From Alphaproteobacteria bacterium (GTDB lineage: Bacteria > Pseudomonadota > Alphaproteobacteria > CBDBCS01), in the NCBI GenBank assembly GCA_965203415.1, contig CBDBCS010000006.1, forward strand, positions 1,378,394 through 1,442,393: a stretch of 64,000 bases of DNA. The letters are read 5' to 3'. This document shows, in pieces, positions 16,349-55,474 of this stretch. The position numbers and the translations under genes are program-made. Below the pieces are notes generated by a model that worked only from the letters and a program-made list of their open reading frames with translations, was not told where the DNA came from and ran no database searches. The stretch's first letter is position 1. Each line of letters opens with the position of its first letter.

Positions 16349-16369
16349 GATTTTGCCCGGAACTTAGGC

Positions 16370-27513: not shown

Positions 27514-27739
27514 GGAATTGCCACAGACATTCAGCTAGATTCGTCGAAATAAAGCCTAAAAAGCCCTAAAATAGGCTTCTTCCCCTGAGCATTGAGCTTG
27601 CATTCTGGTCTTTGTTTGGCCTAGACTGCGATTTCGAGGGGCATGGATAGCGGCGGTTCTCTGTTTTTTTCCGCTCCTGGTTTAGGGGCGCGCTTTTGTC
27701 TTTGCGCGGTCGTAATTGTATTGTCGAGGGCGTTTCTTT

Positions 27740-29380: not shown

Positions 29381-29445
29381 CAAACAAAACACGGGGCTTG
29401 GTAACTGCCGTCCGGAAGACGGGCAGCAGAGGGCAACGAACGGTG

Positions 29446-29699
29446 CGAGCCTATCTGGCTCGCAACAGAGGCTGTGACCGCGTGATGGGGGCTCGGCTGC
29501 TGGGGTGCCTGGTGCAAAACAGAGATTAAAACAACGCCTTGCCGACGAGCTTCGGCGCGGCGAACTGAGACGCGGCGGGTCGGTTTTCGTCGATTGTCTG
29601 CACCAGAATCCACAGAATCCTCGGCAGAACGAATTGACGTTTCGTATAGAGGCTCTGGACCCTGGCCCCGGAAAAAAGCGCCAGAAGTCTCTTGTCTGA
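29446..29699 (+). pseudogene. Relic copy of the clpA 3' end (last ~80 codons)
   Basis: The DNA aligns to clpA 27262-27513. The translated tail '[54 protein letters not shown]' is nearly identical to the ClpA C-terminus. An indel around 29515-29530 breaks the frame upstream. Confidence 0.8.
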
Positions 29700-29940
29700 G
29701 GCATTTCCACGGACATTCAGCCAGATTCGTCGAAATAAATCCTAAAAAACCCTAAAATAGCTCAAAAATAAGCTTCTTTGCCTGATATGGAGCTTGCATT
29801 CTGGTCTTTGTTTGGCCTAGACTCCGGTCTCAAGGGGCATGGGTAGCGGCGGTTCTCTGTTGTTTTCCGTCTGTTTTCCGCTCCTGGTTTAGGTGCGTGC
29901 TTTTGTCTTCGCACAGTAGTCGTTATTGAGGGAGTTTCTT

Positions 29941-34135: not shown

Positions 34136-34360
34136 GTGCCGCCCTCCCGAGCCGCTTCGAGGCCCCATCTCACGAGATAAATACGCTTCGTTACCCATGG
34201 CTCTTCCTGCCTTAAGTTATCCAACAAAATGAGCTCGAAGGCAAGCCCTATGTTCTATGTAAGCTCTGTCGTTCAGACACAACGCGCCACGCCCGCCGCT
34301 CTTGGGTCCGGCCCCCAGAGCAGCCCCAGCACCCGCTCCAAGGGGGGCCGCAGGAGGACC

Positions 34361-35515: not shown

Positions 35516-35689
35516 TTAGGCCTCCTTCGAGCCACGCCCCCCGCCAGAGGAAAGCACACAAAAACTGGAGCCCGCCTACACCCCGCGGCCAACCTCGGGC
35601 CGGGCCGAGACAACCCGGGGCCGAGCCGCCCCCCGGCGCCTCGCCACAGAGAGCCCCCCGGCGGAGGCCTATCGGCTCCTTTCGTCCGT

Positions 35690-35717
35690 ATCCTAGCACC
35701 AATTTTTGATTTTGCAA
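35690..35717 (-). promoter_or_regulatory. Sigma70-like promoter upstream of array member 1 (TTGCAA-16-TAGGAT)
   Basis: The minus strand reads cTTGCAAaatcaaaaattggtgcTAGGATa. Near-identical copies lie at 41343-41370 and 43863-43890. It sits about 165 nt upstream of the start codon. Confidence 0.45.
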
Positions 35718-35873
35718 GCACCTCCGCCCGCCGCCTCCGTGGAGCGGGGGCTGGTGCCGGTCATGTCAGAGAAGGGCCGCCCCCTCGCCCCCTGTCCGTA
35801 AAGAGCCTCCGGTCCGCAGAGAAAGCTCTCTCGAGGGAAAAGGCTCGCCCCCAGAGAAACCTTGGCCTAAGGG

Positions 35874-36467
35874 TTAGGGGAAGGGGAGATAAGTTTGAGG
35901 AGATACAAAAATACTAGGACGGAGGTAAGCAGTGCTTACTATTTTGAAGCTGAATATGTAGCCAACTTGCTCGTGATCTTCGATGAAATCGTCCATATAG
36001 GCCTCGAATGCATATTTTGCACCATGTTCTTTCTCCTGGAGGGTGAACAGGCCCTTTGAATACAGGTTAGCTCGAATCAAACCAATGATAGGGTCCTTCT
36101 CCTCACCCATAAATGCTTCTCCATCTGTCCTGTCTTTGAGTTCAATCCATAAAGGTGCTTTTTTGTCACCGAGCTTCTCTGTGAATTGTTCGTTGTCAGC
36201 CATTTCTTTAATCAAATTTTTGATGATAATCTCGATCAGCTGGTCGTCGACTCTCCTCACCTTAATTTCGGGCTGCCTATCAATGGAGTCTCCATCAGTC
36301 ATACTTATGATGCGAGTACATATTCCGACGATTTCCCTGCCGACGAAATCACAACCGCTCAGAGTTGTCGCAAGGAGCAAGGCTCCCAAAAAACAGGCAG
36401 AAGGCCTCGCAAAAAGAGCGAACACAGGTGCAAAAAATTCAGACAATTCAACATATTTTTTTCTCAC
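35874..36467 (-). CDS. Divergent short array member 2 (lipoprotein, low GC)
   Basis: 197 aa with a GTG start. The family leader plus lipobox 'MRKKYVELSEFFAPVFALFARPSACFLGALLLATTLSGC' is present. The remainder only loosely follows the family C-terminal pattern. GC is visibly lower than in the flanks. Confidence 0.6.
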   Translation of the reverse strand: MRKKYVELSEFFAPVFALFARPSACFLGALLLATTLSGCDFVGREIVGICTRIISMTDGDSIDRQPEIKVRRVDDQLIEIIIKNLIKEMADNEQFTEKLGDKKAPLWIELKDRTDGEAFMGEEKDPIIGLIRANLYSKGLFTLQEKEHGAKYAFEAYMDDFIEDHEQVGYIFSFKIVSTAYLRPSIFVSPQTYLPFP

Positions 36468-36593
36468 TCTTCTCTCCCTATCTCTAAGTTATTCAAGCTG
36501 CGCATGAGGCAATCCCTATCGTTCGACACGCCCGACACGCCACGACCTTCGCCCCCGGCCGCCATGTCGTCAGAGAAGGACCGCCCCCCTCGC

Positions 36594-37634
36594 TCACCGG
36601 CCGTTAAGCGGCTCCAGTCCGTGCTGGAAAAGGCTCCCTCCCCCGAGAATCTGCCTGGCTTCACCGGTACCGGTCCAAACATCAAGACCGGACCGAGTGT
36701 TGGTTACGGTCAAGGTGAGTGTGTGGACAATATCATCACCTTCGTCACTTTTTTTAGCGGCTATGGATCCGTTGAGCACATATTGAACTCCGGCCAATTG
36801 CCCGAGCCGGGTGACATTATGGGAGTCTGCCAGAAGATCAACGCTTGGTATCGGGTATTGTTCTTGAAGCAGGGTCTTCTCCGCCAGAGGATTCCAGTTC
36901 ACAAGGGTGAACTGGTTCGCTTCATACAGGCGAACTTGAAGCGTATCATTGACAATTGGCGTGTCAATGTTTGCATTCGACCGATTTGTGATGGGAGTGA
37001 CCAGTAAAGTCGGTTCGGGTCCGGTAGCGCGGAGTTCCTCTCGTAGAAAGAGGTCGGCGCCCATTTGTGCGATCACGTCGTCGGCAAGATTCCCGAAAGC
37101 CTGGATATCGAGGCTTGTTGCTACGGAAAGCTCACTTTCCTTAGGCTCAAGTGCCTCACGTACCTTACGTAGCTGTTCCGCTTTTTCCTCTCCCTCATTT
37201 TCCGCAATTGTTTCAATACCACCTAAATTCACCCCACTCCAAAACCCCGAGCGACAACGCGACTTTTGGTCTCTTTCTAATTCGCTTCTGCCGCAGGTCT
37301 CTAGGTAGAAGTCAAGAACCTCAAGTTCCGCTTTTTGCTCACTCTCACGTACCTTACGTACCCGTTTCACGTCTCCTTCAGTTTTTTCCGCAAGTTCTTC
37401 AATTTCCTCCCATTCCTGAGTGGAACAAACAACACGTTCGTCGCAGCGGACGATTTTTTCTTCCAATTCATCAGAGCGGGCGATTATTTCCTGGGAGTAG
37501 CCGTAGCCCGGGAAGAGAAAGCTGCTCAGAGTCATCGCAACGAGCACGACTCCCAGAAAACAGGCAGAAGGCCTCGCAAAAAGAGCGAGAAGAGGTGCAA
37601 AAAATTCAGACAATTCAACGTATGTGTTTCTCAT
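36594..37634 (-). CDS. LpoB/FlgO-fold array member 3 (class II central cassette)
   Basis: 346 aa from 'MRNTYVELSEFFAPLLALFARPSACFLGVVLVAMTLSS'. The central cassette is acidic and Cys-containing. The C-terminal domain is 'PTLLVTPITNRSNANIDTPIVNDTLQVRL...GVQYVLNGSIA'. Confidence 0.75.
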   Translation of the reverse strand: MRNTYVELSEFFAPLLALFARPSACFLGVVLVAMTLSSFLFPGYGYSQEIIARSDELEEKIVRCDERVVCSTQEWEEIEELAEKTEGDVKRVRKVRESEQKAELEVLDFYLETCGRSELERDQKSRCRSGFWSGVNLGGIETIAENEGEEKAEQLRKVREALEPKESELSVATSLDIQAFGNLADDVIAQMGADLFLREELRATGPEPTLLVTPITNRSNANIDTPIVNDTLQVRLYEANQFTLVNWNPLAEKTLLQEQYPIPSVDLLADSHNVTRLGQLAGVQYVLNGSIAAKKSDEGDDIVHTLTLTVTNTRSGLDVWTGTGEARQILGGGSLFQHGLEPLNGR

Positions 37635-37759
37635 TTGGTCCTCCGTTTGGCTAAAGGTTAATCTTATCACAAAACGGCCCTCCCGGGCAACCCGGGTCAC
37701 CTTACCAAAGAGAAAATTCAACTACAAGTTAAATTTTCTGTTTTTTTCTATTTATTTTT

Positions 37760-38664
37760 CTATTTTTGAGTTATTGCCGCAGGAGGCCCCGCCCGCGAGG
37801 CCGTCTTATGGACTTCGGCCTCATCTACCCAAGCGTCAAGTCCCGTTTCAATCTCGGTCAAGACCAGGGTGAGCGTGTAGACAATTTGCACTTCGCTCTC
37901 TTGGCGCGTGCGTATCGCCGCGATAGACCCGTGCAGGACATATTGAGCCCCAAGCATTTGTCCGACCTCGGCGGCCGTATCAGAGTCCGCCAGACCGCTT
38001 TGTTCCAATTGTTGCTCTTGCAGCAGAGTCTCTAGTTGGCCTCGACTCACGGGGGCAAAAAGGCGAGCTTTACTCAGGCGGACTCGGAGCGCATTGTGGA
38101 TGAGGTGCACGTCCACGTTCGCATCCGACCCATGCCTCAGGTGGTGTCGTTGCTCTCAGGGGTTGCCTCACGTTCAAGGGCCTCACGTATCGCACGTAGC
38201 TCACGGAGCTGTTCCGCGGTTCCCTCCTTTTCCGCAATGGCTTCAAGATAATCAAAACCCCAAACGCCCCCCGAGCGACAATGCCACGTTCGGTTGCCAT
38301 CCGCACAGAGATCTAAATAGACGCCAAGAATCGCACGGTCCATCGTTTCTCTCTTGCTGCGTCCATAGTCGCGTATCCTACGTACCCGCTCCACATCTTG
38401 CCCTGTTCTTTCCGCATAGTCTTCAATCTTCTCCCATTGGGCAGCGGAACAAATAGACACCCAGGAGCCGCCGTTGCGGCCGTTGGGGTTGAGCAATAAA
38501 GCCTCGCATCTGTTCAAGGCGTTTTCCAATTCACGTTGCTCCACGGAGACACTACAACCGCTCAGAGTCGCCGCAACGAGGACGACTCCGAGAAGATAGG
38601 CGGATACTCTAACGGGTCGGCCGGCGTATCGACCCGTGTATCGGCCAGAGTCTGTTTTTCTCAT
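37760..38664 (-). pseudogene. Array member 4, disrupted by an internal deletion and frameshift
   Basis: The N-terminal ORF (38137-38664; leader with lipobox 'ATLSGC' and a class II cassette) stops at TGA. The C-terminal domain resumes in another frame at '..GSDANVDVHLIHNALRVRL...GAQYVLHGSIA'. About 50 codons corresponding to the 'FG..AF...PTLL..PI.N' segment are missing. Confidence 0.7.
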
Positions 38665-38706
38665 TTGAGCCTCCTTCGAGTCACCATACCGCCACACCCA
38701 CGCCCG

Positions 38707-40299
38707 CTAGGACGTTTTAATGACTTCGGCTGCCTCGAGCCACAAATCAGCACCGGTTTCAATGTTGGTTACGATCAAGGTGAGTGTGTAGACAATCTGC
38801 AGGCCGCCACTCTCGAGCGTGCGTATATCGTCGGCGATGGAGCCGTGGAGCATATATTGAGCTCCGAGCGTTCGCCCGACCTGAGCGGCACTCTCGGCGT
38901 CCACCAGGTCGCCCAGTGTTTGTTCTTGAAGCAGGGTCTCTAGGTGGTCTCGCCTCACGAGTTCAAAGAGGCGCTCTCGATTCAGGCGAACTCGAACCAA
39001 ATTATGGATGAGTTGCGTGTCAATGTTTGCTCCCGACCGGTTCTCGATGGAGGCGATCAGTAAAGTCGGTTTGGTACCGCCGAGGTCCTCTTTGAGACCG
39101 AGGTCGGTGCCCATGTTTTTAATCACGTCGTCGGCAAGTTTTTGGAAATCTCGGACACCGAAGCTCGCTGCGAGAGCTGCCTCAAGGGCCTCACGTTCCT
39201 CCTGTGTCAGACTTGCCTCACGTGTCTCAGGTGCCTCACGTGTCTCACGTGTCAGACTTGCCTCACGTGTCAGACTTGCCTCACGTGGTGTCTCACGTTC
39301 CTCATAACGCCCCTCCTCTTCGCGGACTTTGTCAAGCAGATTTCCGCCGCGCACCAAAAACAGATGTCCGAACGCCTCCTCAATCTGCTTACAAGCGTAC
39401 TCTAAGCTGTAGTATAAGTCTTCTGTGTGCGAGCGGTCAGCATCCCGGGCTTCGCTCCGGTACAAGATACACCCACTACTCAAACCACGTTCCAGGTGTT
39501 TTCTGACTCTTGTGACCGTACGTTCGCCGCCTCTATCACAAGCGTAATAGAATATGTCGTATAGGATTATTGCGTACGAGTCCGCGGGGGACGCCTCGTA
39601 TTTGTAATAGTACGAGTCACACGGATCATAATTTTCTCGAAGACAAGCTTTCCATAAGTTGAATTGTCGTTCTTTTGCGTCGCCCTTCCGGGGGGCAGAC
39701 TCCCGTTTGCGGTAGTCCGAGAGACACGCGCCACTTTCGCGGATTTCCTCGGCCAGATTTTCGCCGCCTTCAACACAAGCGGAGAATAATGCTGCGTATA
39801 GCATTTGTGCGTCCGAGCCCGAGGGGGCATTCCGGGCAGCATTCCAGTATTTGCGGTAGTACGAGATACACGCGCCACTTTGGCGGATTTCCTCGGCCCG
39901 ATTGACGCCGAACCAAGAACAAGCGTAGAATAATGCTGAGTATAGGATTGTTTCGTCCGAGCGTGCATTCCAGGATTTGCGGAAGTACGAGATACACGCG
40001 CCACTTTGGCGGATTTCCTCGGCCCGATTGACGCCGAACCAAGAACAAGCGTGATATAATGCCCAGTATAGGTGGTATTCGTCCGAGTCCGAGGGGGACG
40101 CACGGTATCTGTCCCAGTACGAGTCACACGCATCCTCACGAGCACTCCCAACGCTCGGCGTGACGCCAACGAGAGCGAGCACGAAAACCGCCGCTAAAAA
40201 ACGGACATGCCGACCCGCAAAAAGAGCGAACACAGGGGCCAACAATTCAGACAAGCCTGTGTATCGGCTAGCGTATCGGTCAGAGTCTGTTTTTCTCAT
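38707..40299 (-). CDS. LpoB/FlgO-fold array member 5 (about 5 degenerate two-Cys repeats plus a REASLT tandem)
   Basis: 530 aa from 'MRKTDSDRYASRYTGLSELLAPVFALFAGRHVRFLAAVFVLALVG'. The repeats have the form '..LY.AL(F/Y).AC.(W/E)(F/G)G(V/E)N(R/L)AEEIR(Q/E)SGAC(I/L)S(Y/D)(F/Y)RK'. The C-terminal domain is 'PTLLIASIENRSGANIDTQLIHNLVRVRL...GAQYMLHGSIA'. Confidence 0.8.
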   Translation of the reverse strand: MRKTDSDRYASRYTGLSELLAPVFALFAGRHVRFLAAVFVLALVGVTPSVGSAREDACDSYWDRYRASPSDSDEYHLYWALYHACSWFGVNRAEEIRQSGACISYFRKSWNARSDETILYSALFYACSWFGVNRAEEIRQSGACISYYRKYWNAARNAPSGSDAQMLYAALFSACVEGGENLAEEIRESGACLSDYRKRESAPRKGDAKERQFNLWKACLRENYDPCDSYYYKYEASPADSYAIILYDIFYYACDRGGERTVTRVRKHLERGLSSGCILYRSEARDADRSHTEDLYYSLEYACKQIEEAFGHLFLVRGGNLLDKVREEEGRYEERETPREASLTREASLTRETREAPETREASLTQEEREALEAALAASFGVRDFQKLADDVIKNMGTDLGLKEDLGGTKPTLLIASIENRSGANIDTQLIHNLVRVRLNRERLFELVRRDHLETLLQEQTLGDLVDAESAAQVGRTLGAQYMLHGSIADDIRTLESGGLQIVYTLTLIVTNIETGADLWLEAAEVIKTS

Positions 40300-40528
40300 G
40301 TGAGCTCCCTTCGAGACACGCCCCTCGCAAGAGAAATAGGCCGAGTTTCCCCTTTCTCTTCCTATACACCCAGGCCTGCGGCCTCGGGCTCCGGGTCTGG
40401 GGCCGGCCCCGGGGCCGACCATGCCAGAAGAAGCGGCCTCGTTGGCAACAGCTCGCCCCCGGGGGCCCCTCGCCCGGGGCACCCCGGGGCCACCCCGGGG
40501 CCGGGGAACCCCAGGGGGAACTCTCGGC

Positions 40529-41191
40529 CTAAAAGAGCCCCCGCGAGGACGTTTTACTGACCTCGGCTTCATCGACCCAATAGTCGATGCCGGTCTCGAG
40601 TTCGGTCAAGGTCAAGACGACTTTGTAGAAAATCTGTTGGTCGCCACTCTCGCGCGTCCGGATATTCGCGATGGACCCGTGCAAGAGATATTGAGCCCCA
40701 ACCAACCGCCCGATCTGGCTGGCACTATCGGGGTCCGCGAGACCGCTTTCGCCCAATTGCTGCTCTTCGAGCAGGGTCTCCAGGTGGTTCCGGTTCACAA
40801 AGGTGAAGAGGCGAGCTCGATTCAGGCGGACTCGAATCGAGTCATTGATGAGCTGCGTGTCAATGTGCTCATCCGACCGATTCACCACAGGCGAGATCAG
40901 TAAAGTCGGCCTGAGATCGCCCAGATCCTCTTTGAGACCGCGGTTGGTGACCATGGCCTCGACCATATCGTCGACGATTTTCCGGAAATCTCGGACGCCG
41001 AAGCTCGTGGTGAGCGCTTCCTCGCCCGCCTGGTTTTCGCGGACGCCGCCACAGCTGCCTAGAGTCGTCGCTAGGAGGACGGCTCCTAAGAAACAGGCCG
41101 AGCGCCTCGTGAAACGACTCGCGAAACGACCCGCGAAAAGAGCGAGCCCAGTGGCGAAAAATTCAGACAATTCAAGGTATTTTTTTCTCAT
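40529..41191 (-). CDS. LpoB/FlgO-fold lipoprotein, array member 6 (minimal form, no central repeats)
   Basis: 220 aa from 'MRKKYLELSEFFATGLALFAG...LLATTLGSC', with a lipobox. This is directly followed by the family C-terminal domain 'FGVRDFRKIVDDMVEAM...PTLLISPVVNRSDEHIDTQLINDSIRVRL...GAQYLLHGSIA'. Confidence 0.8.
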   Translation of the reverse strand: MRKKYLELSEFFATGLALFAGRFASRFTRRSACFLGAVLLATTLGSCGGVRENQAGEEALTTSFGVRDFRKIVDDMVEAMVTNRGLKEDLGDLRPTLLISPVVNRSDEHIDTQLINDSIRVRLNRARLFTFVNRNHLETLLEEQQLGESGLADPDSASQIGRLVGAQYLLHGSIANIRTRESGDQQIFYKVVLTLTELETGIDYWVDEAEVSKTSSRGLF

Positions 41192-41342
41192 TTCCTTCTC
41201 CATTTGACTAAAGGGTTAGTTTATCCCAAAAAACGGCCTTCTCGGGAGCCCCGGGACACCCGGGACGACCCGCGACCAAGCCCGGGAGTTTCGCCGCCTC
41301 GAGGCGGCCCCGGAAGAGGTCTTCGGCCATTTCTCTGCCTCT

Positions 41343-41370
41343 ACCCTAGCACCAATTTTTGATTTTGCAA
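41343..41370 (-). promoter_or_regulatory. Sigma70-like promoter upstream of array member 6 (TTGCAA-16-TAGGGT)
   Basis: The minus strand reads tTTGCAAaatcaaaaattggtgcTAGGGTa. Twenty-two consecutive nt are identical to the copy at 35690-35717. Confidence 0.45.
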
Positions 41371-41525
41371 GAATCTCCGCCGGGCCCGAGACCCAAACTG
41401 CCGTCTCTGCCTCGGCTGCCGCCTCCTCCGGGGAGCCTCCTGCGTGGTGTGTCGAGGCCTGGCGGCTCCGTCAGAGCCGGAGCAGACCCAGAGCCGGCCC
41501 GCTCCACGGGGCCGCAGGAGCGGCG

Positions 41526-42491
41526 TTACTTACGGACTTGGGCTGCTTTTTCAAAAAAGTTAGAACCTTGAGTTTCAAGCTCGATTAAGGTCAAAAAGAC
41601 TCTGCAGTTCGTTCGATCACCGGCGACGGTGCCGTGGAGCACATATTGGACTCCGACTATTCGCCCGATCTCGGTCGCCGTATCGGAGTCCACGACCCCG
41701 CTTTGGGGCTGTTGTATTTTTTGAAGGATTTTCTTTACATTCCGGCTTGAAACTTTAAAAAAGCGCAAATCGCTCACGAGAATCCGAATCGACTCATTGA
41801 TGAGTTGCGTGTCAATGTCTTCCCCCACGCGACTCTCTATGGGAACGATCACTAAAGCCGGTTCGGCATCCTCGCCGAGCTTTTGTTTCAAGTTCGCCGC
41901 CATGTTGATGATGACGGTCTCTAAAGCGAAGGTCGGTGCGACCGTTTCCTGCTCCCGGGCCGGATTTTTTTCGCGAAGACAATTTTCCAATAAGTTGAGT
42001 TGTCGACGTTCTTCGTCCGAGTTCTCGGAGGCGTCCCAGAATTTGCGGTGGTATGAGAGACACGCCTCAGTTTCTTGGATTTCCTCGGCCAGGTTTTCGC
42101 CGCCCTCAAGACAAGCCCACCATAATGCGTTGTATCGGATTTCTTTGTCCGAGCCCGAGGGGGCCTCCCAGAATTTGCGGTGGTATGAGAGACACGCCCC
42201 ACTTTTTTTGTCGATTTCCTTGAGCCGCTTTTCGCCGCGGCCGAGCCCAGCACAAAGCTTCCGGGATTTGTATTCTCGGCCTTCTTCGTCCGAGTCAGTG
42301 GATTTGTACGAGAAACAGGCCTCAAGAGGACTAGGAATAGGAACAGGAACAAGAACAGGAATACAAGAGCTCAGCGTGACGCCAACGAGAGCCGTCGCCA
42401 GAACGGCCGCCAAAAAACGGACACGCCGACTCGCCAAAAGAGCGAGCCCGAGTGCCAAAAGTGTAGACAATCCGATGGTTGTTGTTCTCAT
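41526..42491 (-). CDS. LpoB/FlgO-fold lipoprotein, array member 7 (about 2.5 two-Cys repeats)
   Basis: 321 aa. The leader 'MRTTTIGLSTLLALGLALLASRRVRFLAAVLATALVGVTLSSC' carries a lipobox. The repeats include 'GACLSYHRKFWEAPSGSDKEIRYNALWWACLEGGENLAEEIQETEACLSYHRKFW'. The C-terminal domain is 'PALVIVPIESRVGEDIDTQLINESIRI...GVQYVLHGTVA'. Confidence 0.8.
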   Translation of the reverse strand: MRTTTIGLSTLLALGLALLASRRVRFLAAVLATALVGVTLSSCIPVLVPVPIPSPLEACFSYKSTDSDEEGREYKSRKLCAGLGRGEKRLKEIDKKSGACLSYHRKFWEAPSGSDKEIRYNALWWACLEGGENLAEEIQETEACLSYHRKFWDASENSDEERRQLNLLENCLREKNPAREQETVAPTFALETVIINMAANLKQKLGEDAEPALVIVPIESRVGEDIDTQLINESIRILVSDLRFFKVSSRNVKKILQKIQQPQSGVVDSDTATEIGRIVGVQYVLHGTVAGDRTNCRVFLTLIELETQGSNFFEKAAQVRK

Positions 42492-42543
42492 TTCTTTCTC
42501 CGTCTAGCTTCTGATAGGAAAAGGTGGAGGCCGCAGGAGGACG

Positions 42544-43650
42544 CTACTTACGGACTCGGGCTGCGTCGACAAACACCTCAACACCGGTTTCAGTCTCGAT
42601 TAAGGCCAAGACGACTCTGTAGTGCGTTTGCTGATTGTCATTTATGTTGGCGACGGTGCCGTAGAGTACATATTGAGCGCCGATCAAGCGTCCGATCTCG
42701 ACCGCCGTGTCAGAGTCCGCGAGATCGCTTTGGGCCAGTTGTAGTTCTTTCAGGATGGTCTCCAGATTCCGGCTCACAATTGTAAAAAAGGGCACCTTGC
42801 TCAGGCGATTCCGAATCGACTCATTGATGAGTTGCGTGTCAATGTCTTCACCCACACGCTTATCGATGGGAACGATCAGTAAAGTCGGTCTGGCATTCTG
42901 GCCGAGCTCCTCTTTCAAGGCCTCCACCATGTCGTCGACGATGGTCTCGAAAGCCTGGACGCCGAAGCTCGCGGCGACCGTTTCCTGCCTACGGGCCGGA
43001 CTTATTTCGCGAACACAAGCTTTCCATAAGTTGAGTGGTCGAACTACCTCGTCATTGCCCCGGAAGGCCTTCCAGTATTTGCGGAAGTCCGAGAGACACG
43101 CCCCAGTTTCGCGGATTTCCTCGGCCAGGTTTTCGCCGCCCAGAACACAAGCGGTGAATAATCCGTAGGGTAGGATTTCTTCGTCCCCGGGGGCCTTCCA
43201 CCCTTTGCGGAAGTCCGAGAGACACGCCCCAGTTTCGTGGATTTCCTCGGCCCGATTTTCGCCGCCCAGAACACAAGCGGTGAATAATCCGAAGTATCGG
43301 ATTTCTTCGTCCGAGTCCGAGGGGGCCTTCCAGTATTTGCGGAAGTCCGAGAGACACGCCCTAGTTTCGTGGATTTCCTCGGCCCGATTGACGCCGCCCC
43401 AAGCACAAGCGTTCCATAATGCGGCGTATAGGATTCTTTCGTCCGAGCCCGAGGGGGCCGCCTGGTGTTTTTCACCATACAAGTCACACACATCATTAGC
43501 ACGAGCACTACCAACGCTCAGCGCGCCGACGACGAGAGCGGTTGCCAGAACAGCCGCCCAAAAACGGACACGCCGACTCGCCAAGAGTGCGCCTCCGAGC
43601 GCGACGCCGCGTGCCAAAAATTCAGACAATCCGATGGTTATGTTTCTCAT
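42544..43650 (-). CDS. LpoB/FlgO-fold secreted protein, array member 8 (about 3.5 two-Cys repeats)
   Basis: 368 aa. The leader is 'MRNITIGLSEFLARGVALGGALLASRRVRFWAAVLATALVVGALSVGSARA'. It has three clear repeats and the C-terminal domain 'PTLLIVPIDKRVGEDIDTQLINESIRNRL...GAQYVLYGTVA...LALIETETG'. Confidence 0.8.
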   Translation of the reverse strand: MRNITIGLSEFLARGVALGGALLASRRVRFWAAVLATALVVGALSVGSARANDVCDLYGEKHQAAPSGSDERILYAALWNACAWGGVNRAEEIHETRACLSDFRKYWKAPSDSDEEIRYFGLFTACVLGGENRAEEIHETGACLSDFRKGWKAPGDEEILPYGLFTACVLGGENLAEEIRETGACLSDFRKYWKAFRGNDEVVRPLNLWKACVREISPARRQETVAASFGVQAFETIVDDMVEALKEELGQNARPTLLIVPIDKRVGEDIDTQLINESIRNRLSKVPFFTIVSRNLETILKELQLAQSDLADSDTAVEIGRLIGAQYVLYGTVANINDNQQTHYRVVLALIETETGVEVFVDAARVRK

Positions 43651-46908: not shown

Positions 46909-48777
46909 ATGCCTGACCTACTCGAAGAACTCGAGGCCCTGCTCGCTCGAGACGAACGCTTCGTCCAGAACGGGCGCGTGATGAGGAATAAAGTCGTCAC
47001 AGAGGCCCTCAAGCTGGATAGAGGTCTCCTGGAGGCTCTTCTGGCGTCCGACCCTCTGAGACAAGCCTTTTTCGCCAAAGTCGGCGAGCTCTGGGTTTTT
47101 GACAAAGTCAAATTCACGCAATTTGTCCATCACAAAAGCTTCCTGCCAGACAGTTTTACAAGGTTCAAAAATAAAATAGGCCTCGGACAGAAAGACGTGC
47201 TGCTGTCCGAGCTGGATGAATTCGTGCTCCATTGGCCCTATAAGGACTGCACGCTGGAGGCCGGCCAGACGCGCCCCAACCAAAAACGAACCGAGTTCTT
47301 CTGGAATGAGCTCCTCGCCCGTTCAGAGCTGGACCTATTCCTGGAACCTAAAGTCCTGACCCATTTCAAACGCTTCTCTTCGAGCGGCGTGAGCGAGGTA
47401 GAAACGCTCTGCGACGACGATAATCTGGTGATCAAGGGCAATAATTTACTGGTTCTGCACACGCTCAAAAAGCGTTATGCGGGTCGAGTGAAACTCATTT
47501 ACATAGACCCGCCTTACAATACGGGTAAGGACAGTTTTCTCTACAACGATCATTTCCGGCACAGCACATGGTTGACGTTCATGAAAAATCGTCTCGAGCT
47601 CGCCCGGGACTTTTTGTCCAAAGAGGGCGTGATATTCGTGCAGTGCGACGACCACGAGCAGGCCTATCTCAAAGTGCTCATGGACGAGATCTTCGGGCGA
47701 GACCATTGTGTCGGTACGTTTCTGTGGAAGAAAAATAAAAGCGGGAATCAGAACACGCGTTATATGGCCCTCCAGCACGATTACATTCTGGCCTTCGTCA
47801 AAGAGAAAGGCCAGACACAATGGCGCGTCTCGTACACGCAAGAGGACCTCGCCGACTATAAAGAACGAGACGGGCAGGGGGTGTTCTACTGGAAGCCCGT
47901 CGCCCACGCCACAAGAGGCAAAACCCGAACGCTCTCGTATAGAGGCGAGACCCACCACATCGAAAAAAGTGTCTACGCCTCCGACACTTTGAAAGAACTC
48001 CTGGACCTCGGCGAGGCGTGTTTCCGGAAAAACAAGCACGGGGTGCAACAGCTGTACAAAAAACAGCGTTTGAAGAAAGGCACCTTGCCGTACTCTTTGA
48101 TGGACGCCAGGCGGTTCCCGATGAACGAGGACGCGAATAAAGAGCTCGCCGCCCTCTTCGGGGAGACCGCCGTTTTCGAGACCGCCAAGCCCGAATATCT
48201 CCTTTTCTATCTCATAGACATTGCGACGCGTCCCCAGGATCTTGTGATGGACTTTCATCTCGGGAGCGGCACCACGCTCGCCGTTGCGCACAAAATGGGG
48301 CGCCGCTATATCGGGGTCGAACAAATGGATTACATAGAACCCATTGTGGTCGAACGCATGAAAAAAGTCATCCAGGGCGAGCAGGGAGGCGTCTCCCCGC
48401 ACGCCTCTTGGCGCGGCGGCGGCGACTTCGTCTATTGTGAATTGATGGCTCTGAACCAGGCCTATGTCACGCGCATAGAAAGAGCCCGCTCGCATCCGGA
48501 ACTCTTGGCTTGTTGGGACGACCTCCTCCTGGAGGCGAAAGCGCATCTGAAATATCATCTGCGAAAGAGTCTGTTGAGAACTTCACGGGACGCCTTCGAG
48601 GCTCTGGCGTTTGAGGAAAAAAAACGCATGCTCCTAGAGCTTCTGGATAAAAACATGCTGTATGTGCCGCTCTCGTCTCTGGAGGACCAAGAGTATCGCA
48701 TAGAGGAACGCACAAAAAAACTGAACGCTTTTTTTGCCTCGTCTCCTTCCCCGCCGAGTCCGCCAGAAGCAACGTGA
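46909..48777 (+). CDS. mod: Type III restriction-modification system methyltransferase (Mod)
   Basis: 622 aa. It carries the catalytic motif IV 'LIYIDPPYNTG' and the AdoMet motif 'DFHLGSGTTLAVAHKMGRRYIGVEQ' in beta-class order. The N-terminus 'MPDLLEELEALLARDERF' is typical of Mod. Confidence 0.85.
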   Translation: MPDLLEELEALLARDERFVQNGRVMRNKVVTEALKLDRGLLEALLASDPLRQAFFAKVGELWVFDKVKFTQFVHHKSFLPDSFTRFKNKIGLGQKDVLLSELDEFVLHWPYKDCTLEAGQTRPNQKRTEFFWNELLARSELDLFLEPKVLTHFKRFSSSGVSEVETLCDDDNLVIKGNNLLVLHTLKKRYAGRVKLIYIDPPYNTGKDSFLYNDHFRHSTWLTFMKNRLELARDFLSKEGVIFVQCDDHEQAYLKVLMDEIFGRDHCVGTFLWKKNKSGNQNTRYMALQHDYILAFVKEKGQTQWRVSYTQEDLADYKERDGQGVFYWKPVAHATRGKTRTLSYRGETHHIEKSVYASDTLKELLDLGEACFRKNKHGVQQLYKKQRLKKGTLPYSLMDARRFPMNEDANKELAALFGETAVFETAKPEYLLFYLIDIATRPQDLVMDFHLGSGTTLAVAHKMGRRYIGVEQMDYIEPIVVERMKKVIQGEQGGVSPHASWRGGGDFVYCELMALNQAYVTRIERARSHPELLACWDDLLLEAKAHLKYHLRKSLLRTSRDAFEALAFEEKKRMLLELLDKNMLYVPLSSLEDQEYRIEERTKKLNAFFASSPSPPSPPEAT

Positions 48778-48821
48778 CCACCGAGGTGACCCGGGCCGCA
48801 TAAGGCTCCCCCCCCAAGACG

Positions 48822-51599
48822 ATGACCTATTCTCCCCGACCAGAGTCTCCCCTTTTCTTGGAGGAGCTCGCCCTTCAGGACCAGCTGGAAAGGCGTTTTG
48901 GAAGAGACCCCATCGCTCGAGTCCCGCTGCCAACGTGCATACGTAAAAACTTAAATCCTCGGTTTGTTTTGCGCGCCTATCAGATCGATGCGTTGCAACT
49001 TTATCTGACGTATTGGCGTTATGTTTTAGCGCCGGCTCTTCCTGCTGCCGGCGCCGGAGACCCGGCCGGAGATCCGGCCGGGCCGCCGCTGGCGGCCTCG
49101 AGTCGTCATGTCTTGTTTCAGATGGCCACAGGCAGCGGTAAGACGCTGATTATGGCGAGCCTCCTTTTGCACCTCTACGAACAGGGCTATCGGAACTTCC
49201 TCTTTTTCGTCCATAGCACAGACATTCTTGAACAAACGAAAAGCCTCTTTTTGGATGCCGGTTCGGACAAATATCTTTTCGCGGACAAGGTCACCATGGC
49301 AGGCCGTCCTGTTGGGCTCAGAGCGGTCAAGACGCTTCCGTCGGTCGCCGCCTCTGATGGTTCGCAAGAGCCCGCCAATCTGCTTTTTTGCACAGTTCAA
49401 GAGCTCCACAATATCGTTTCGGTCTCTCGAGAAAACCGCCTAACGTTGGACGATTTCGAGACCCATAAATGGGCTGTTTTTTCGGACGAAGCGCACCACA
49501 CCAACACAGAAACAAAGCGCGGGCCAGGACGCCCGACCTCCCTCAGGCATCCCAGCTGGGAGCACACCGTCCAGAAAATCACCACCCACCCCGAGACACT
49601 CTTGTTTGAGTTCACCGCAACGATGCTGCTCAACAATCCCGAGCTCTTAGAGAAATATCGCCCTAAACTCATTTTTGACTATGCCCTTGCGAAGTTTTGC
49701 AAGGCCCGCTTTTCCAAAAACATCCGCGTGTTGCAATGGGACAGTCCGCCTCTGGAGCGGGCCTTGCTGGCCGTCCTCTTGAGTCAGTACCGAAAAAAAC
49801 TTTTCGAGACTCAAGGGCTCTCGGTCAAACCCGTCTTGCTTTTCAAATCCGAGACGATTCGAGAAAGCCAATCTTTTTATGCTCTTTTTTCTGAGAGACT
49901 CAGAAAGGTGACGTCTGCCGAGCTGTCTCGGCTTCGAGCCATGACCCACGAGGCCCCGACAACGGACCCCATTCTGGAAACCATGTTCCGGTTCTTCGAA
50001 ACGCATCAGATTGATTTGGATAATCTCGCCCTTGAATTGCGAGAAGACTTCGCCGAGTCCCGATGGCTGCTGATACACAGCCAGGCCGAGTCTGTCGAAA
50101 AACGACGCGCCCTCAAAAACCTAGAGCACCCGACGAACCCCTATCGGCTTATTGTCGCTGTCGATAAGCTCAGCGAGGGCTGGGATGTTTTGAATCTATT
50201 CGATATTGTCCGAGTTTCGCTCGGGGGTTCAAGCCGGTGGACTCAAAACAAGAGTCAGAAAATCACAACGCGCGAGGCTCAATTAATCGGTCGAGGCGCC
50301 CGCTATTATCCCTTTGCCTTCACGGAAGACCAGGACCCCTTTCGTCGCAAATTCGATGCGGACCCCGAGCATGAGCTCCGTCTTTGCGAGACGCTCTACT
50401 ACCACAGCCCGCGGGACTCGGCGTATATTGCCGCCTTATCGGATGCTATGAAAGGCTTGGGTCTTGTGGGGTTTCTCCCGCCGGCTCCGGAGAAAATGAC
50501 CCTCAAGCCGGATTTCAAAAAGAGGGCGTTTTATCAAAAGGGCGTCCTCTTTCTCAATGGGGCCGTGGCGTGTCCGCGCCAAGAGAAACACGCTTTCTAT
50601 CAGGACCTGATTATTTCGTTTCACTTTGACATTCCCTTGCTGACGTATGCGGGGCGCACCGACGATCTTTTGGGCCAGACAAAGACGCTCCAGATCACCC
50701 GCGCCGAAAAGTCTCTGTCCGGTTTTTCCGATGCGGTTATTCACAAGGCTCTCTGCCGGAATGGGTTTTACCATTTTTCATCTCTGAGGCGTTATCTGCC
50801 GTGTCTGACCTCCATCCGAGAATTCATCACGAGTCGGACGTATCTCGGCAAGGTTAAAGTCCGATTGACGGGGACTTACGAGCGTCTCCAGAATCTCACG
50901 CCCGATGACGAGCTCTATGCGGTCGAGTGCTATCTGCACCGGCTCGAGCAGACTTTTACGCGCCGCATCCTCTCGCGTCAGGGGAGTCCCGTGTTTTCAC
51001 CCCGGCGCGTCCGAGACATCTTTCACGATAAAATTATGCACGCGCCGTCTTCGGCCGCCCCGCCCCCCGCTCCGTTGCCGCCGCCGCCTGGCCATTCGGA
51101 AGCGTCCCACACCTGGTATGTCTTCAACGAGGGACGCCACGTGGCGTGGCTCTCGGCGGTGGAGCAGGCCTTTCTGAAATACTTCGAAGCCCAGGCCACG
51201 GCGCTCCAAAAAAAATACGCCGAAGTGTATGTCATCCGAAATGAAGGCTTCTTCAAACTGTATCAGTTCGAGGACGGGCGCGTCTTCGAACCGGATTTTC
51301 TACTCTATCTGAGACAAGAGCACAACCAGACCTCGACCCATTACCAGGTCTTTATAGAAGCCAAAGGCGAGCACCTGATCGGAACAGAAAAATGGAAAGA
51401 AGAATTCCTGCTCGCCCTAGAAGCCCGAGCTCAAGTCCAAGCTCAAGTCGGGGGGCAACCCGAGGTCCAACCCGGCCCTCAATCCCGGGCAGAGCCGCAA
51501 AAACACCAGTATGTTCTCCTCGGCCTCCCCTTTTACAGAGAACACCAGAGCCGACCCATAGGGCCCTTCTGCGAAACCTTCGAGAAGCGTTTTCTCTGA
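48822..51599 (+). CDS. res: Type III restriction endonuclease subunit (Res)
   Basis: 925 aa. It has SF2 helicase motif I 'QMATGSGKTLIMA' and motif II 'VFSDEAHHTN', plus a C-terminal endonuclease region. It begins 44 nt downstream of mod. Confidence 0.85.
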   Translation: MTYSPRPESPLFLEELALQDQLERRFGRDPIARVPLPTCIRKNLNPRFVLRAYQIDALQLYLTYWRYVLAPALPAAGAGDPAGDPAGPPLAASSRHVLFQMATGSGKTLIMASLLLHLYEQGYRNFLFFVHSTDILEQTKSLFLDAGSDKYLFADKVTMAGRPVGLRAVKTLPSVAASDGSQEPANLLFCTVQELHNIVSVSRENRLTLDDFETHKWAVFSDEAHHTNTETKRGPGRPTSLRHPSWEHTVQKITTHPETLLFEFTATMLLNNPELLEKYRPKLIFDYALAKFCKARFSKNIRVLQWDSPPLERALLAVLLSQYRKKLFETQGLSVKPVLLFKSETIRESQSFYALFSERLRKVTSAELSRLRAMTHEAPTTDPILETMFRFFETHQIDLDNLALELREDFAESRWLLIHSQAESVEKRRALKNLEHPTNPYRLIVAVDKLSEGWDVLNLFDIVRVSLGGSSRWTQNKSQKITTREAQLIGRGARYYPFAFTEDQDPFRRKFDADPEHELRLCETLYYHSPRDSAYIAALSDAMKGLGLVGFLPPAPEKMTLKPDFKKRAFYQKGVLFLNGAVACPRQEKHAFYQDLIISFHFDIPLLTYAGRTDDLLGQTKTLQITRAEKSLSGFSDAVIHKALCRNGFYHFSSLRRYLPCLTSIREFITSRTYLGKVKVRLTGTYERLQNLTPDDELYAVECYLHRLEQTFTRRILSRQGSPVFSPRRVRDIFHDKIMHAPSSAAPPPAPLPPPPGHSEASHTWYVFNEGRHVAWLSAVEQAFLKYFEAQATALQKKYAEVYVIRNEGFFKLYQFEDGRVFEPDFLLYLRQEHNQTSTHYQVFIEAKGEHLIGTEKWKEEFLLALEARAQVQAQVGGQPEVQPGPQSRAEPQKHQYVLLGLPFYREHQSRPIGPFCETFEKRFL

Positions 51600-51846: not shown

Positions 51847-51882
51847 GGCGCCTGTCCGAATACGGCAGGCGCCCTTTTTTTC
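51847..51882 (+). terminator. Rho-independent terminator
   Basis: The GC stem ggcgcctg / caggcgcc is extended by ccg/cgg, has an AATA loop, and is followed by TTTTTTT. Confidence 0.7.
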
Positions 51883-51913: not shown

Positions 51914-52576
51914 TCACCGGAAATGCACCGCAAAACGGAGGCTCTGGGCAATGAGAAAGGGCCCGCCTCCGACTAAAACGAGCATGAAAGCCGCTAAAAG
52001 CATGAGCTGAGGCCCCATCTCTCCGCCTTGTCGGGCGGTCTCTATAATCAGCAGGCTGAACAACAAAGGCGGTATCAAAAGAGGGAACCCCAACAGCCCC
52101 GCTAGAGGACTGGAAGGCGTGAGGGCTAACGTCAGACTCGCCGCGAAAAGGCCCGTGATCAAAAGAATCGGCACCACAAAAAGAAGGCAAAAACACAGGA
52201 GAAGAATGTGCGGAACAGGCAAAGCCAACATCATCCCCGCGACAGGGACAGCAAGTAAAACAGGAACTCCCAGGGTCAGGCTGCAACTGATGAATTTCGC
52301 CCACACCACGCCATAGAGCGGGAAACCATAGGCGAAAAGAGCCTCAAGCGTGCCGTCGCGTCGGTCTTCGTCAAAGGCGCGCTCCACGGCAAGCACGAGG
52401 CTCAAAGCGACAAGAAGCCAGATCAAATAAGGTGCGAAAAAAGAAAACGCCTCGAGGCGATACCCAAAGGTCTGCCGAAACAAGGTCAGCGCGAGAAGAA
52501 AAAAACCCAGCGTCGCAAAGAGCTCGTGGCGTTTTTCGCGTTGCTCGCGCAGATAAAGACCGACCAGGTGCCACAT
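51914..52576 (-). CDS. ccmB: Heme exporter protein B (cytochrome c maturation)
   Basis: 220-aa membrane protein with six TM segments and the motif 'AVERAFDEDRRDGTLEAL' typical of CcmB. Confidence 0.85.
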   Translation of the reverse strand: MWHLVGLYLREQREKRHELFATLGFFLLALTLFRQTFGYRLEAFSFFAPYLIWLLVALSLVLAVERAFDEDRRDGTLEALFAYGFPLYGVVWAKFISCSLTLGVPVLLAVPVAGMMLALPVPHILLLCFCLLFVVPILLITGLFAASLTLALTPSSPLAGLLGFPLLIPPLLFSLLIIETARQGGEMGPQLMLLAAFMLVLVGGGPFLIAQSLRFAVHFR

Positions 52577-52610
52577 GCTGCGTTCTCCCGTAGGCTCTTT
52601 GAGAGAGGGT

Positions 52611-54951
52611 CCCCGCTCGCCCCCGCCAGAGGCACCGCCAGAACGGCCCCCGCCCCCGGCGGACTATCCATCCGACCAGCCCTCGCTAGAGGCACCGTCA
52701 GAACGGCCCCAGCCCCCGGCGGACTATCCGACCAGCCCTCGCTCCCCGTCGCCAGAGGCACCGCCAGAACCCAGCTGGAACCCGCTTGACCCTCTGTATG
52801 GGCTCCCGCTTCCCACCGCCAGAGGCACCGCCAGAACGGCCCCAGCCACCGGCGGACTATCCGACCAGCCCCCGCTCCTCACCGCCAGAATTGTCGGTTG
52901 ACAAGGCCGGCCAGTTTCCGGGGCCCCGCTCCTCACCGCCAGAGGAGCCGACAGAATACTCGTGCAGCACACGAGGACATGCTGTTTGTCCCTGCTCCCC
53001 GCCGTCAGAGGAACCTCCAGAACTCCAGCTGGACCACGCTCGCCCTCTGTATGGGGCCCCGCTCCTCACCGCCAGAGGAGCTGACAGAATACTCGTGCAG
53101 CACACGAGGACATGCTGTTTGCCCCTGCTCCCCGCCGTCAGAGGAACCTCCAGAACTCCAGCTGGAACCCGCTTGACCCTCTGTATGGGCTCCCGCTTCC
53201 CACCGCCAGAGGCATCGTCAGAACCAGCTGGACCATGCTCGCCCCTCTGTATGGGGCCCCGCTCCTCACCGCCAGAGGAGCTGACAGAATACTCGTGCAG
53301 CACACGAGGACATGCTATTTGCCCCCGCTCCCCGCCGTCAGAGGCATCGCCGGAACCCAGCTGGACCACGCTCGCCCCTCTGTATGGGCCCCCGCTCCCC
53401 ACCGCCAGAGGAGCTGACAGAATACTCGTGCAGCACACGAGGACATGCTGTTTGCCCCCGCTCCCCACCGTCAGAGGCACCGCCAGAACCCAGCTGGAAC
53501 TCGCTCGTCCCTCTGTATGGGTCCTCGTTTTCCACCGCCAGAGGCACCGCCAGAACCCAGCTGGAACCCGCTTGACCCTCTGTATGGGCTCCCGCTTCCC
53601 ACCGCCAGAGGCATCGTCAGAACCAGCTGGACCATGCTCGCCCCTCTGTATGGGGCCCCGCTCCTCAACGCCAGAGGAGCTGACAGAATACTCGTGCAGC
53701 ACACGAGGACATGCTGTTTGCCCCCGCTCCCCGTCGCCCGAGGCACCGCCAGAACTGACCGTAACTCAGTCCCTTGTGCGTGACAGCTCCCGCTCCTCAC
53801 CGCCAGAGGCACCGCCAGAACTCCAGCTGGACCACGCTCGCCCTCTGTATGGGGCTCCCACTCTTCACCGCCAGAGGCACCGCCGGAACCTTGACGCTCG
53901 AAATCAGGGGGGCGGGCTTGCCCTCGCTCTCCGCCGCCCGAGGCACCACCAGAACCCAGCTGGAACCCGCTCGTCCCTCTGTATGGGTCCCCGTTTTCCA
54001 CCGCCAGAGGCGCCGCTAGAAGGCCCCAGCCCCCGCTCCTCACCGCCAGAGGCATCGCCAGAATACTCGTGTAGCACACGCGAACATGCTGTCTGCCCTT
54101 GCTTTCTACCGCCAGAAGCACCGCCAAAACGGCCCCAGCCACCGGCGGACTATCCGACCAGCCCTCGCTCCCCGCCGCCAGAGACACCGCCAGAACGGCC
54201 CCAGCCACCGGCGGACTATCCGACCAGCCCTCGCTCCTCACCGCCAGAGGCACCGCCAGAACTGACCGTAACTCAGTCCCTTGTGCGTGACAGCTCCCGC
54301 TCCTCACCGCCAGAATTGTCGGTTGACAAGGCCAGCCAGTTTCCGGGGCCCCGCTCCTCAACGCCAGAGGAGCCGACAGAATACTCGTGCAGCACACGCG
54401 AACATGCTGTCTGCCCCCGCTCCTCGCCGCCCGAGGCACCGCCAGAACAGCCCCAGCCCCCGGCGGACTATCCGACCAGCCCTCGCTCCCCGTCGCCCGA
54501 GGCACCGCCAGAACCCAGATGGAACCCGCTTGACCCTCTGTATGGGCTCCCGCTTCCCACCGCCAGAGGCACCGTCAGAACGGCCCCAGCCACCGGCGGA
54601 CTATCCGACCAGCCCCCGCTCCCCGTCGCCAGAGGCACCGTCAGAACGGCCCCAGCCACCGGCGGACTATCCGAGCAGCTCCCGCTCGCCCCGTCAGAGG
54701 CACCGCCAGAACCCAGCTGGAACACGCTCGCCCTCTGTATGGGCCCCCGCTTCCCACCGCCGGAACCCAGCTGGAACACGCTTGACCCTCTGTATGGCCC
54801 CCGCTTCCCGTCGCCAGAGGCACCGCCAGAACGGCCCCAGCCACCGGCGGACTATCCGACCAGCCCCCGCTCTCTACCGCCAGAGGCACCGCCAGAACTG
54901 ACCGTAACTCAGTCCCTTGTGCGTGACAGCTCCCGCTCCTCACCGCCAGAA
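52611..54951. repeat. Modular ~66-bp minisatellite array (about 36 units): a ~33-nt core alternating with about six recurring ~33-nt modules
   Basis: The core CCCGCTCCTCACCGCCAGAGGCACCGCCAGAAC has a perfect copy at 53789-53821. The modules, with example positions, are A ggccccagccaccggcggactatccgaccagc (52838-52869), B ccagctggaacccgcttgaccctctgtatgggct (52771-52804), C tgaccgtaactcagtcccttgtgcgtgacagct (53756-53788), D ttgtcggttgacaaggccggccagtttccggggc (52891-52924), E (45 nt, after a 21-nt short core; 52946-52990) and F (53890-53922). Confidence 0.9.
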
Positions 54952-54964
54952 TAGGCCGGGAGGA

Positions 54965-55474
54965 CTAGCCGATAGACACAGACGCCGGCTCAGACGCCGG
55001 CCCTGGCGTCGGCCCGGGCGGTTCCGCCGCCGAGCTCGCCGCAGATGGCACGCCGTCCGGCTGGCTGTCGCTCTTTCCGGCGGCGGCGGCGGGACTTTTG
55101 CCAGAGGCACTCTTCCCGGGCGCATGCTTGCCGGCGGCGGCGGCGGCCTTTTTCACGCTCGAGCTAACGCCCGAGGCGCGCGTTGTCTCTCCTTGTTTGG
55201 TTTTCTTTTCGATCTCGGTTTTGAGGCTCTGTCCTTTTTTCGTCAATTTACGGACAGGCATGTTCCGGAGATACGCATCCAGACCGCCCGCAAAATCGAC
55301 CGTGCGGAGCGTCCGCGTCGGCAGGCGCAAGCGCACAATGCGACTCAAGGCCTCTGAGCGCAACCGCACCGCCTGAATGTTCGGCAGGAAGTGCCGCAGC
55401 GTCTTGTTCTGCGCGTGGCTCACCTTGTGACCCTTGAGAGCCCCTTTACCCGTAAGTTCGCATCGTCGAGCCAT
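54965..55474 (-). CDS. rpmB: 50S ribosomal protein L28 with a ~65-aa low-complexity C-terminal extension
   Basis: The sequence 'MARRCELTGKGALKGHKVSHAQNKTLRHFLPNIQ' is the L28 signature. The ORF continues to 169 aa through an Ala/Lys/Ser/Pro-rich tail. Confidence 0.85.
   Translation of the reverse strand: MARRCELTGKGALKGHKVSHAQNKTLRHFLPNIQAVRLRSEALSRIVRLRLPTRTLRTVDFAGGLDAYLRNMPVRKLTKKGQSLKTEIEKKTKQGETTRASGVSSSVKKAAAAAGKHAPGKSASGKSPAAAAGKSDSQPDGVPSAASSAAEPPGPTPGPASEPASVSIG

Follow-up and report, generated by a model that had tools for sequence, protein, structure and literature searches.

A mosaic tandem-repeat array between rpmB and ccmB with CRISPR geometry: a false CRISPR and possibly the body of an orphan proline-rich reading frame

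What kind of element is the 2.3-kb repeat array that fills the gap between rpmB and ccmB in a 64-kb stretch of an alphaproteobacterial genome (64,000 nucleotides (nt) of the 1,787,677-bp contig CBDBCS010000006.1, assembly GCA_965203415.1; this whole stretch is called the window below)? Its spacing is that of a CRISPR array. The original prediction, made from the letters, doubted that it is one and listed a mosaic minisatellite among the candidates, and both the doubt and this label proved right. The array is a tandem-repeat false CRISPR, not a CRISPR. What it is instead can be said with less confidence: to judge from its frame structure, there is about an even chance that it is the body of a plus-strand open reading frame (ORF) for an orphan proline-rich protein, either expressed or recently disabled.

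The array lies at positions 52612-54951, as shown alike by reading of the sequence, by Tandem Repeats Finder and by fuzzy matching of the core. Segmentation gave 36 units and a partial core, in line with the earlier count of about 36 head-to-tail units in the rpmB-ccmB gap. The core consensus is CCCGCTCCCCACCGCCAGAGGCACCGCCAGAAC (33 nt), and the internal duplication noticed before is present in it as a 12-nt tandem, CACCGCCAGAgg/CACCGCCAGAac. Tandem Repeats Finder, which had been proposed as a check, recovered the array with periods of 66, 133, 200, 266, 333 and 399 nt. When a 24-nt piece of the core was searched with up to 3 mismatches, all 23 matches fell on the plus strand and within 52621-54898, and dinucleotide shuffles gave none. 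The array and one example of each unit type are as follows.

52612..54951, plus strand: mosaic tandem array of 36 units that ends in a partial core of 20 nt; a unit consists of a 33-nt core and, behind it, a module of one of six families
54164..54229, plus strand: example A unit, 66 nt; core and GGCCCCAGCCACCGGCGGACTATCCGACCAGCC; in-phase reading RSPPPETPPERPQPPADYPTSP
53457..53523, plus strand: example B unit, 67 nt, frame-shifting; core and CCAGCTGGAACTCGCTCGTCCCTCTGTATGGGTC; in-phase reading RSPPSEAPPEPSWNSLVPLYGS
54230..54295, plus strand: example C unit, 66 nt; two of its three plus phases contain stops; all three C copies stand in the open phase
54296..54349, plus strand: example D unit, 54 nt; one 12-nt internal core copy is lost, an in-frame change
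53258..53323, plus strand: example E unit, 66 nt; hairpins GCTCCTC/GAGGAGC and CTCGTG/CACGAG; in-phase reading RSSPPEELTEYSCSTRGHAICP
53857..53922, plus strand: the sole F unit; stop in the PPE phase (defined below), the long ORF crosses it in another phase

The units follow each other in the order A A B A D E B E B B E B E B B B E C B F B a E A A C D E A B A A B B A C (d). The family counts given before hold for B (13), C (3), D (2), E (7) and F (1), but A has 10 members when truncated copies are counted, not about nine. Modules are 93-100% identical inside a family (the three C copies are identical) and about 30% identical across families, and the variation of the core clusters in its first 17 nt. 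The period of about 66 nt is that of most units, including A, C, E and F, but B, D, one A and the first two units deviate. D units have 54 nt and, like unit 34, lack exactly one of the 12-nt core copies; one truncated A has 42 nt (minus 24 nt); units 1 and 2 have 70 and 56 nt, a duplication of 4 and a deletion of 10 that cancel to 126 nt together. The B units measure 67 nt (seven), 68 nt (two), 66 nt (two), 65 nt and 54 nt, and units 7 and 19 carry a +T/-C pair within a single module. The hairpin CTCGTG-CAGCA-CACGAG ascribed to the E units is there, but their "truncated core" is better described as a core of full length whose 3' half has diverged, a change that creates the second hairpin, GCTCCTC/GAGGAGC. 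The higher-order blocks reported for the array (E-B pairs four times, the runs A/C-D-E and A-C) are all present. Because multi-unit blocks with 92-96% identity reappear, at spacings of 399, 636, 1425 and 1744 nt, unequal recombination or slippage between the common cores would be the process that expands and reshuffles the array under every reading discussed here.

Could the array be a degenerate or orphan CRISPR, whose spacers were duplicated through recombination? Its geometry alone speaks for this: a 33-nt repeat and a spacer of about 33 nt, present at one locus and with every copy in the same direct orientation. The repeat/spacer look arises because a conserved half alternates with a variable half. 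However, the 32 full-length cores comprise 29 distinct sequences with a mean pairwise identity of 81% and a minimum of 0.58, and these "repeats" are less conserved than the "spacers", whose families show 93-100% identity. The "spacers" recur as six families, so they are not the unique and unrelated spacers by which a CRISPR is recognized. The earlier statement that the window holds no cas gene is supported: Pfam found no Cas domain in 39 ORFs of at least 200 amino acids (aa) in the window, which covers 64 kb of a 1.79-Mb genome, and PADLOC gave no cas match among the window ORFs that lack a Pfam match. Rfam, including its CRISPR repeat families, yielded no match at the gathering threshold or at E<=10; no inverted repeat or palindrome was found inside the core, and no AT-rich leader at the array. 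Protospacers were not found either. The modules had no blastn match in 50,697 phage and 72,556 plasmid records, a comparison that had been proposed earlier, and neither the core nor modules A, C, D, E and F had an exact match in IMG/VR.

The array appears equally isolated in other searches. The remaining 61 kb of the window hold no copy of the core or of the modules, a scan of 185,579 species-representative genomes with the core returned three single chance hits and no array, and the core and the B module had no match in JGI metagenomes. False CRISPRs are defined as lacking spacer diversity and companion cas genes (PMC5294841), and the array fits this definition. Tandem repeats are their largest class, with more than half of such elements (Zhang & Ye 2017, PMC5294841), and one example sits inside the gene of the surface protein SdrC (PMC5294841). 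The orphan-CRISPR reading is already refuted on its defining features, and we would give it next to no probability.

If the array is not a CRISPR, which of its strands, if any, could be read? The plus strand carries the following ORFs, listed with peptides predicted from them.

52690..54954, plus strand: long ORF, 2,265 nt, position mod 3 = 1; 754 sense codons and the stop TAG at 54952-54954
52575..52901, plus strand: 108-codon ORF; its ATG overlaps the ccmB start (common CATG); units 1-3 stand in the RSPPPEAPPE phase
In-phase block readings, plus strand: A RPQPPADYPTSP; B PSWNPLDPLYG; C LTVTQSLVRDSS
In-phase block readings, plus strand, continued: D LSVDKAGQFPGP; E LTEYSCSTRGHAVCP; F carries a stop
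Examples of predicted plus-frame peptides: PQPPADYPTSPR, SSPPEELTEYSCSTR and LTVTQSLVR

The long ORF spans 97% of the array, antisense to rpmB and ccmB, and the earliest start codons in its frame are TTG 52786 (722 aa) and ATG 52798 (718 aa). Its product contains 22% proline, 11% serine and 10% arginine, and the predicted protein would probably have about 720-790 residues. Across 52577-54964, plus frame 1 has no stop from 52690 to the TAG at 54952, while plus frame 0 has 11 stops and plus frame 2 has 12; the three minus frames have 8, 12 and 20. With T at 14% of the bases, about 1.8% of random codons would be stops (an estimate from the base counts), and base composition alone cannot yield the open plus frame. 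In shuffles of the unit order, which preserve the stops and the length of each unit, the observed open length was reached in 33 of 20,000 trials when all units were shuffled and in 5 of 20,000 for units 3-37; shuffling the B units only gave 195 of 20,000, and the non-B units only 478 of 20,000. The open frame is thus matched in 0.03-2.4% of trials. The longest frame of the minus strand, with 575 matches in 5,000 shuffles, is not unusual. The plus ORF was also considered as an antisense shadow of a minus-strand gene, and this was rejected: the codon-aligned minus frame is the most closed one (20 stops).

How does this frame remain open through units of different length? A unit comprises 22 codons, and translation unit by unit in phase gives a regular 22-residue repeat. 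Its first 11 codons are common, R-[S/F]-[S/P]-P-P-E-[A/E]-P-P-E, with a four-codon xPPE duplication, and its last 11-12 codons form one of six alternative blocks. The phase in which the core reads R-S-S-P-P-E-A-P-P-E, the PPE phase, is stop-free in 35 of 37 units, and the long ORF uses it in 23 of 37. Regardless of the frame, 25 of the 37 units share one phase, which shuffles of unit lengths rarely reproduce (P=0.015; stop codons not used). The 12-nt core duplication, the 66-nt unit, the 54-nt D unit, the 42-nt unit and the 70+56=126 nt of units 1 and 2 are all multiples of 3. The B units of 67 or 68 nt are the exception: each of them shifts the ORF out of phase, and the excursions end within one to three units, with frame-shifting units that cancel in groups, (67,68), (67,67,67), (68,67), (67,65) and (+4,-10). 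Every unit that the ORF crosses on these excursions is open in the phase then used. Stops in the PPE phase occur only in the units at 53124 and 53857, and the ORF crosses both out of phase; the C module is open in one phase only, and all three C modules lie in that phase.

The original prediction had named a single proline-rich protein, encoded here by frame-consistent repeats, as something that would speak against it. An open frame of 755 codons with compensated frameshifts is indeed present, but the repeats in it are not frame-consistent, and the prediction is therefore not cleanly refuted on this point. Three partly independent frame signals, namely openness, restoration of phase and lengths compatible with 3 nt, favour a coding origin, and long tandem arrays of bacteria with codon-multiple periods are usually coding. 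One-nucleotide slips would occur at G/C runs within the B modules and next to them. Under the coding reading, selection would mainly keep one frame open rather than conserve the peptide. Units 1-3, one nucleotide out of frame, would mean that translation starts at TTG 52786 or ATG 52798, or that a frameshift is fresh. They belong to the 108-codon ORF, in the frame of which the +4 and -10 indels of units 1 and 2 cancel, and a single +1 shift within 52690-52899 would fuse both ORFs to about 793 codons.

Most of the 1-nt length differences in the B modules and their junctions (52771-54807) fall within short runs of C or G, namely in GAAC[C]CAGCTGG, in CGCCC[C]TCTG and at the junction TATGG[G]...CCC[C]GC. 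Three units depart from this, with an inserted T in GAAC[T]CCAGCTGG. Such C/G runs are natural slippage sites and also candidate places for sequencing error. As the origin of the 67-nt B units a sequencing error was rejected, since seven copies agree; by reasoning, a hypothetical 66-nt B would also interrupt the ORF, since the C unit at 53723 would then lose its phase.

Several observations speak against a working gene. Measured by what marks a tandem-repeat gene, the array has a period that is a multiple of 3 and one frame open beyond chance, but it lacks a consistent phase with purifying selection, native codon usage, a ribosome-binding site and unique termini. Translation leaves the PPE phase in 14 of 37 units. 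The ORF reads the B module in each of the three phases (as ...PLYG five times, ...LCMG seven times and ...SVWV once), and therefore its peptide is not conserved. For block copies that are 92-96% identical, the ratio of non-synonymous to synonymous polymorphism (pN/pS) is 0.67 in the ORF frame, which does not stand out from the 0.44 and 0.97 of the other frames; of the variants within families, 14 are synonymous and 21 non-synonymous. The PPE phase has a synonymous-codon score of -0.07, which lies 3.5 standard deviations below that of 28 window genes (0.156 +/- 0.064); the core relies on codons that are rare in these genes (CCA 9%, GCA 8%, TCA 4%), and the codon log-odds of the ORF frame, -0.19, are lower than those of every real gene tested.

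The limits of the ORF point the same way. Both its start and its stop lie inside the array, and it has no unique N- or C-terminus; the TAG arises at the last partial core, and 10 nt separate it from the convergent rpmB stop. Neither a signal peptide nor a clear Shine-Dalgarno sequence before TTG 52786 or ATG 52798 was found, and units 1-3 stand in the PPE phase but in another frame, that of the 108-codon ORF. The 722-aa ORF has no homologue or self-match in collections of 5.8 billion and 1.84 billion proteins, and an exact look-up of six other array ORFs in a protein collection found none present. The rpmB and ccmB products of the same genome are present in both collections, and therefore the annotation of the depositors does not call the ORF. 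Pfam and the PDB gave no match for the real ORF or for an idealised in-phase translation. Finally, the shuffle P-values ignore the history of block duplication: among the four large block repeats, the spacings of 399, 636 and 1425 nt are divisible by 3, and the one of 1744 nt belongs to the 5' block, which is out of frame. A realistic neutral probability for the open frame is nearer 0.01-0.03 than 0.0003. Poor codon usage, missing termini and the lack of any constraint on the sequence itself are arguments for neutrality or decay.

These observations are what one would expect if the array were a never-translated mosaic minisatellite in the rpmB-ccmB spacer, built by unequal crossing-over at the 33-nt core, in which the long plus ORF is a by-product of a T-poor repeat whose stop-bearing modules are out of phase by chance. 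We consider this a serious alternative, though a somewhat doubtful one. Openness would be the sole coding signal, next to poor codon usage, near-neutral pN/pS and mixed phases; the limits of the ORF are the limits of the array; the ORF is without homologues and is missing from collections that have its neighbour genes; and the stops, counted as independent origins, are distributed 5/4/1 over the unit phases, which alone is not significant. Yet the open frame, the retention of phase and the 3-nt lengths would all have to be coincidence, with single P-values from 0.0003 to 0.024. A non-coding minisatellite of 2.3 kb would also be unusual in a genome of 1.79 Mb, and the array shows no feature linked to a function, neither a palindromic core nor a structure signal nor dispersed copies. 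An unlikely variant of the coding reading is a "frame-promiscuous" coding minisatellite acting as a contingency locus, in which only openness is selected and six modules in three phases are reshuffled by unequal crossing-over between cores and by +/-1 slippage at G/C runs in or around the B modules, to give a hypervariable proline-rich protein. Possibly ribosomes would also slip by +1 on CCC-C runs at the B-module junctions. Equally conceivable would be a non-coding counterpart: a core-plus-module array, cas-independent, that gives rise to a repetitive RNA between rpmB and ccmB.

A long structured or processed RNA of the minus strand (an rpmB 3' untranslated region, a ccmB leader, a scaffold or a sponge), with the E hairpins serving as attenuators or processing sites, appears improbable to us. 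The array does lie between two minus-strand genes, and no strong intrinsic terminator follows rpmB. An E hairpin followed by TATTCTGT gives a weak terminator-like score on the minus strand, and two unit types fold somewhat better than shuffles, B with z = -2.2 on the minus strand and E with -1.5 on the minus and -2.6 on the plus strand. However, on neither strand do units A, C, D and F fold better than shuffled sequence (z from -0.8 to +0.4). The two E hairpins are genuine inverted repeats, yet three of seven copies have substitutions that are not compensated: an A-to-C change weakens the hairpin in two E units, and a T-to-C change affects the core hairpin of a third. Over the range of unit folds (z from -2.6 to +0.4) the array has no RNA-structure signal overall, and the structured RNA offered by the original prediction finds no support, also in Rfam, as said above. 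That prediction had further assumed that the array belongs to the minus strand together with its neighbours. The sole strand-specific signal sits on the plus strand, and no minus-strand frame links the rpmB stop to the ccmB start. The orphan proline-rich ORF, expressed or recently disabled, keeps its even chances.

The two genes that border the array are confirmed by Pfam, and the gaps of 13 and 34 nt stated before are exact.

54965..55474, minus strand: rpmB, ribosomal protein L28; stop at 54965-54967, 13 nt from the array; converges on the plus ORF
51914..52576, minus strand: ccmB (Pfam CcmB); start at 52574-52576, 34 nt from the array; diverges from the plus ORFs

The L28 protein, whose nearest relatives are alphaproteobacterial proteins with 53-61% identity, has 169 aa, vs 92-100 aa in its closest homologues; its C-terminus is extended by about 100 low-complexity residues, among which Ala, Lys, Ser and Pro abound. 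An identical 169-aa product occurs in a public protein collection. That the array continues this extension was considered and rejected, as stops directly follow in the minus frames. The ccmB gene is solitary, with no adjoining ccmA or ccmC, and very divergent: the best of 5.8 billion proteins is 33% identical, and the locus of this nearest homologue shows no synteny with rpmB and has different neighbours.

The neighbourhood of the array consists of housekeeping genes and a Type III restriction-modification pair. This pair is complete (mod, then res; 46909-51599, plus strand) and adjoins ccmB, and a strong GC-rich hairpin terminator (51847-51873) follows it. Elsewhere in the window, a cluster at 34361-43650 on the minus strand comprises six or seven lipoprotein-like paralogues that carry an LpoB-like domain (PF13036) at the C-terminus; they have in common internal repeats of 132 nt and also blocks that are 60-84% identical. 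Two tandem paralogous segments, about 2.2 kb apart and 88-91% identical, lie at 27343-30238, the second of them within the gene of a family-5 solute-binding protein (29926-31581, plus strand), and the long minus-strand ORFs over them resemble antisense shadow ORFs. A 1,404-aa ORF at 5370-9584 (minus strand) has no Pfam or PADLOC match, and the same is true of the ORFs at 3968-5341 and 32942-34198. The class A RNase P RNA (15867-16351, plus strand, 258 bits) partly overlaps the 5' end of the ORF at 14927-16342, and therefore the real start of this rhomboid-domain ORF is probably further downstream.

What follows from these results? Geometry-based finders would call the locus a CRISPR, and a pipeline that masks CRISPRs could leave it without a gene call; tests of spacer diversity and of the reading frame on both strands resolve it. 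If the ORF is expressed, its product would be a proline-rich orphan protein of repetitive build, from a small-genome lineage that is deeply isolated and probably alphaproteobacterial, and it could serve as a marker for strain typing and as a case of selection for openness without selection for sequence. If the array is non-coding, it would be an unusually long and complex bacterial minisatellite. Neither outcome touches a major open question.

It remains to compare the array with known systems. With CRISPR arrays it shares the 33+33-nt spacing only, and the other testable defining features are missing here. MSP1a of Anaplasma marginale, Arp of Treponema pallidum and the TRPs of Ehrlichia carry repeats of 20-30 residues in named forms, whose number and order vary by recombination. 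These proteins are acidic or proline/serine-rich and lineage-specific, with a single reading phase, unique termini and known expression. The units of our array, in contrast, read in three phases, and there is no sequence homology. The intergenic mosaic elements of Neisseria (dRS3 and RS arrays) and the bacterial interspersed mosaic elements (BIMEs) of E. coli are dispersed over many loci and consist of inverted or palindromic repeats. What they have in common with the array is a short repeat between whose copies stand recurring modules of a closed set, in a region without a coding annotation. The likeness to BIMEs suggested earlier goes no further, however, as the core here is non-palindromic, all copies have one orientation, and the array is a single locus in 64 kb. 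A never-translated array would be loosely comparable to these Neisseria elements, to the intergenic variable-number tandem repeats (VNTRs) of Wolbachia and to mycobacterial interspersed repetitive units (MIRUs), but unlike in a MIRU-type VNTR, no frame on the operon strand couples the flanking genes here (8, 12 and 20 minus-strand stops). The closest match is with the tandem-repeat false CRISPRs (PMC5294841), which show the same repeat/spacer geometry, lack of spacer diversity, absence of cas and detection by Tandem Repeats Finder. Unlike them, the array has six unrelated module families in a higher-order pattern, not one degenerate unit. It is a lineage-specific example of a tandem-repeat false CRISPR or orphan repeat ORF, mildly unusual in that its frame stays open while the units are read in three phases.

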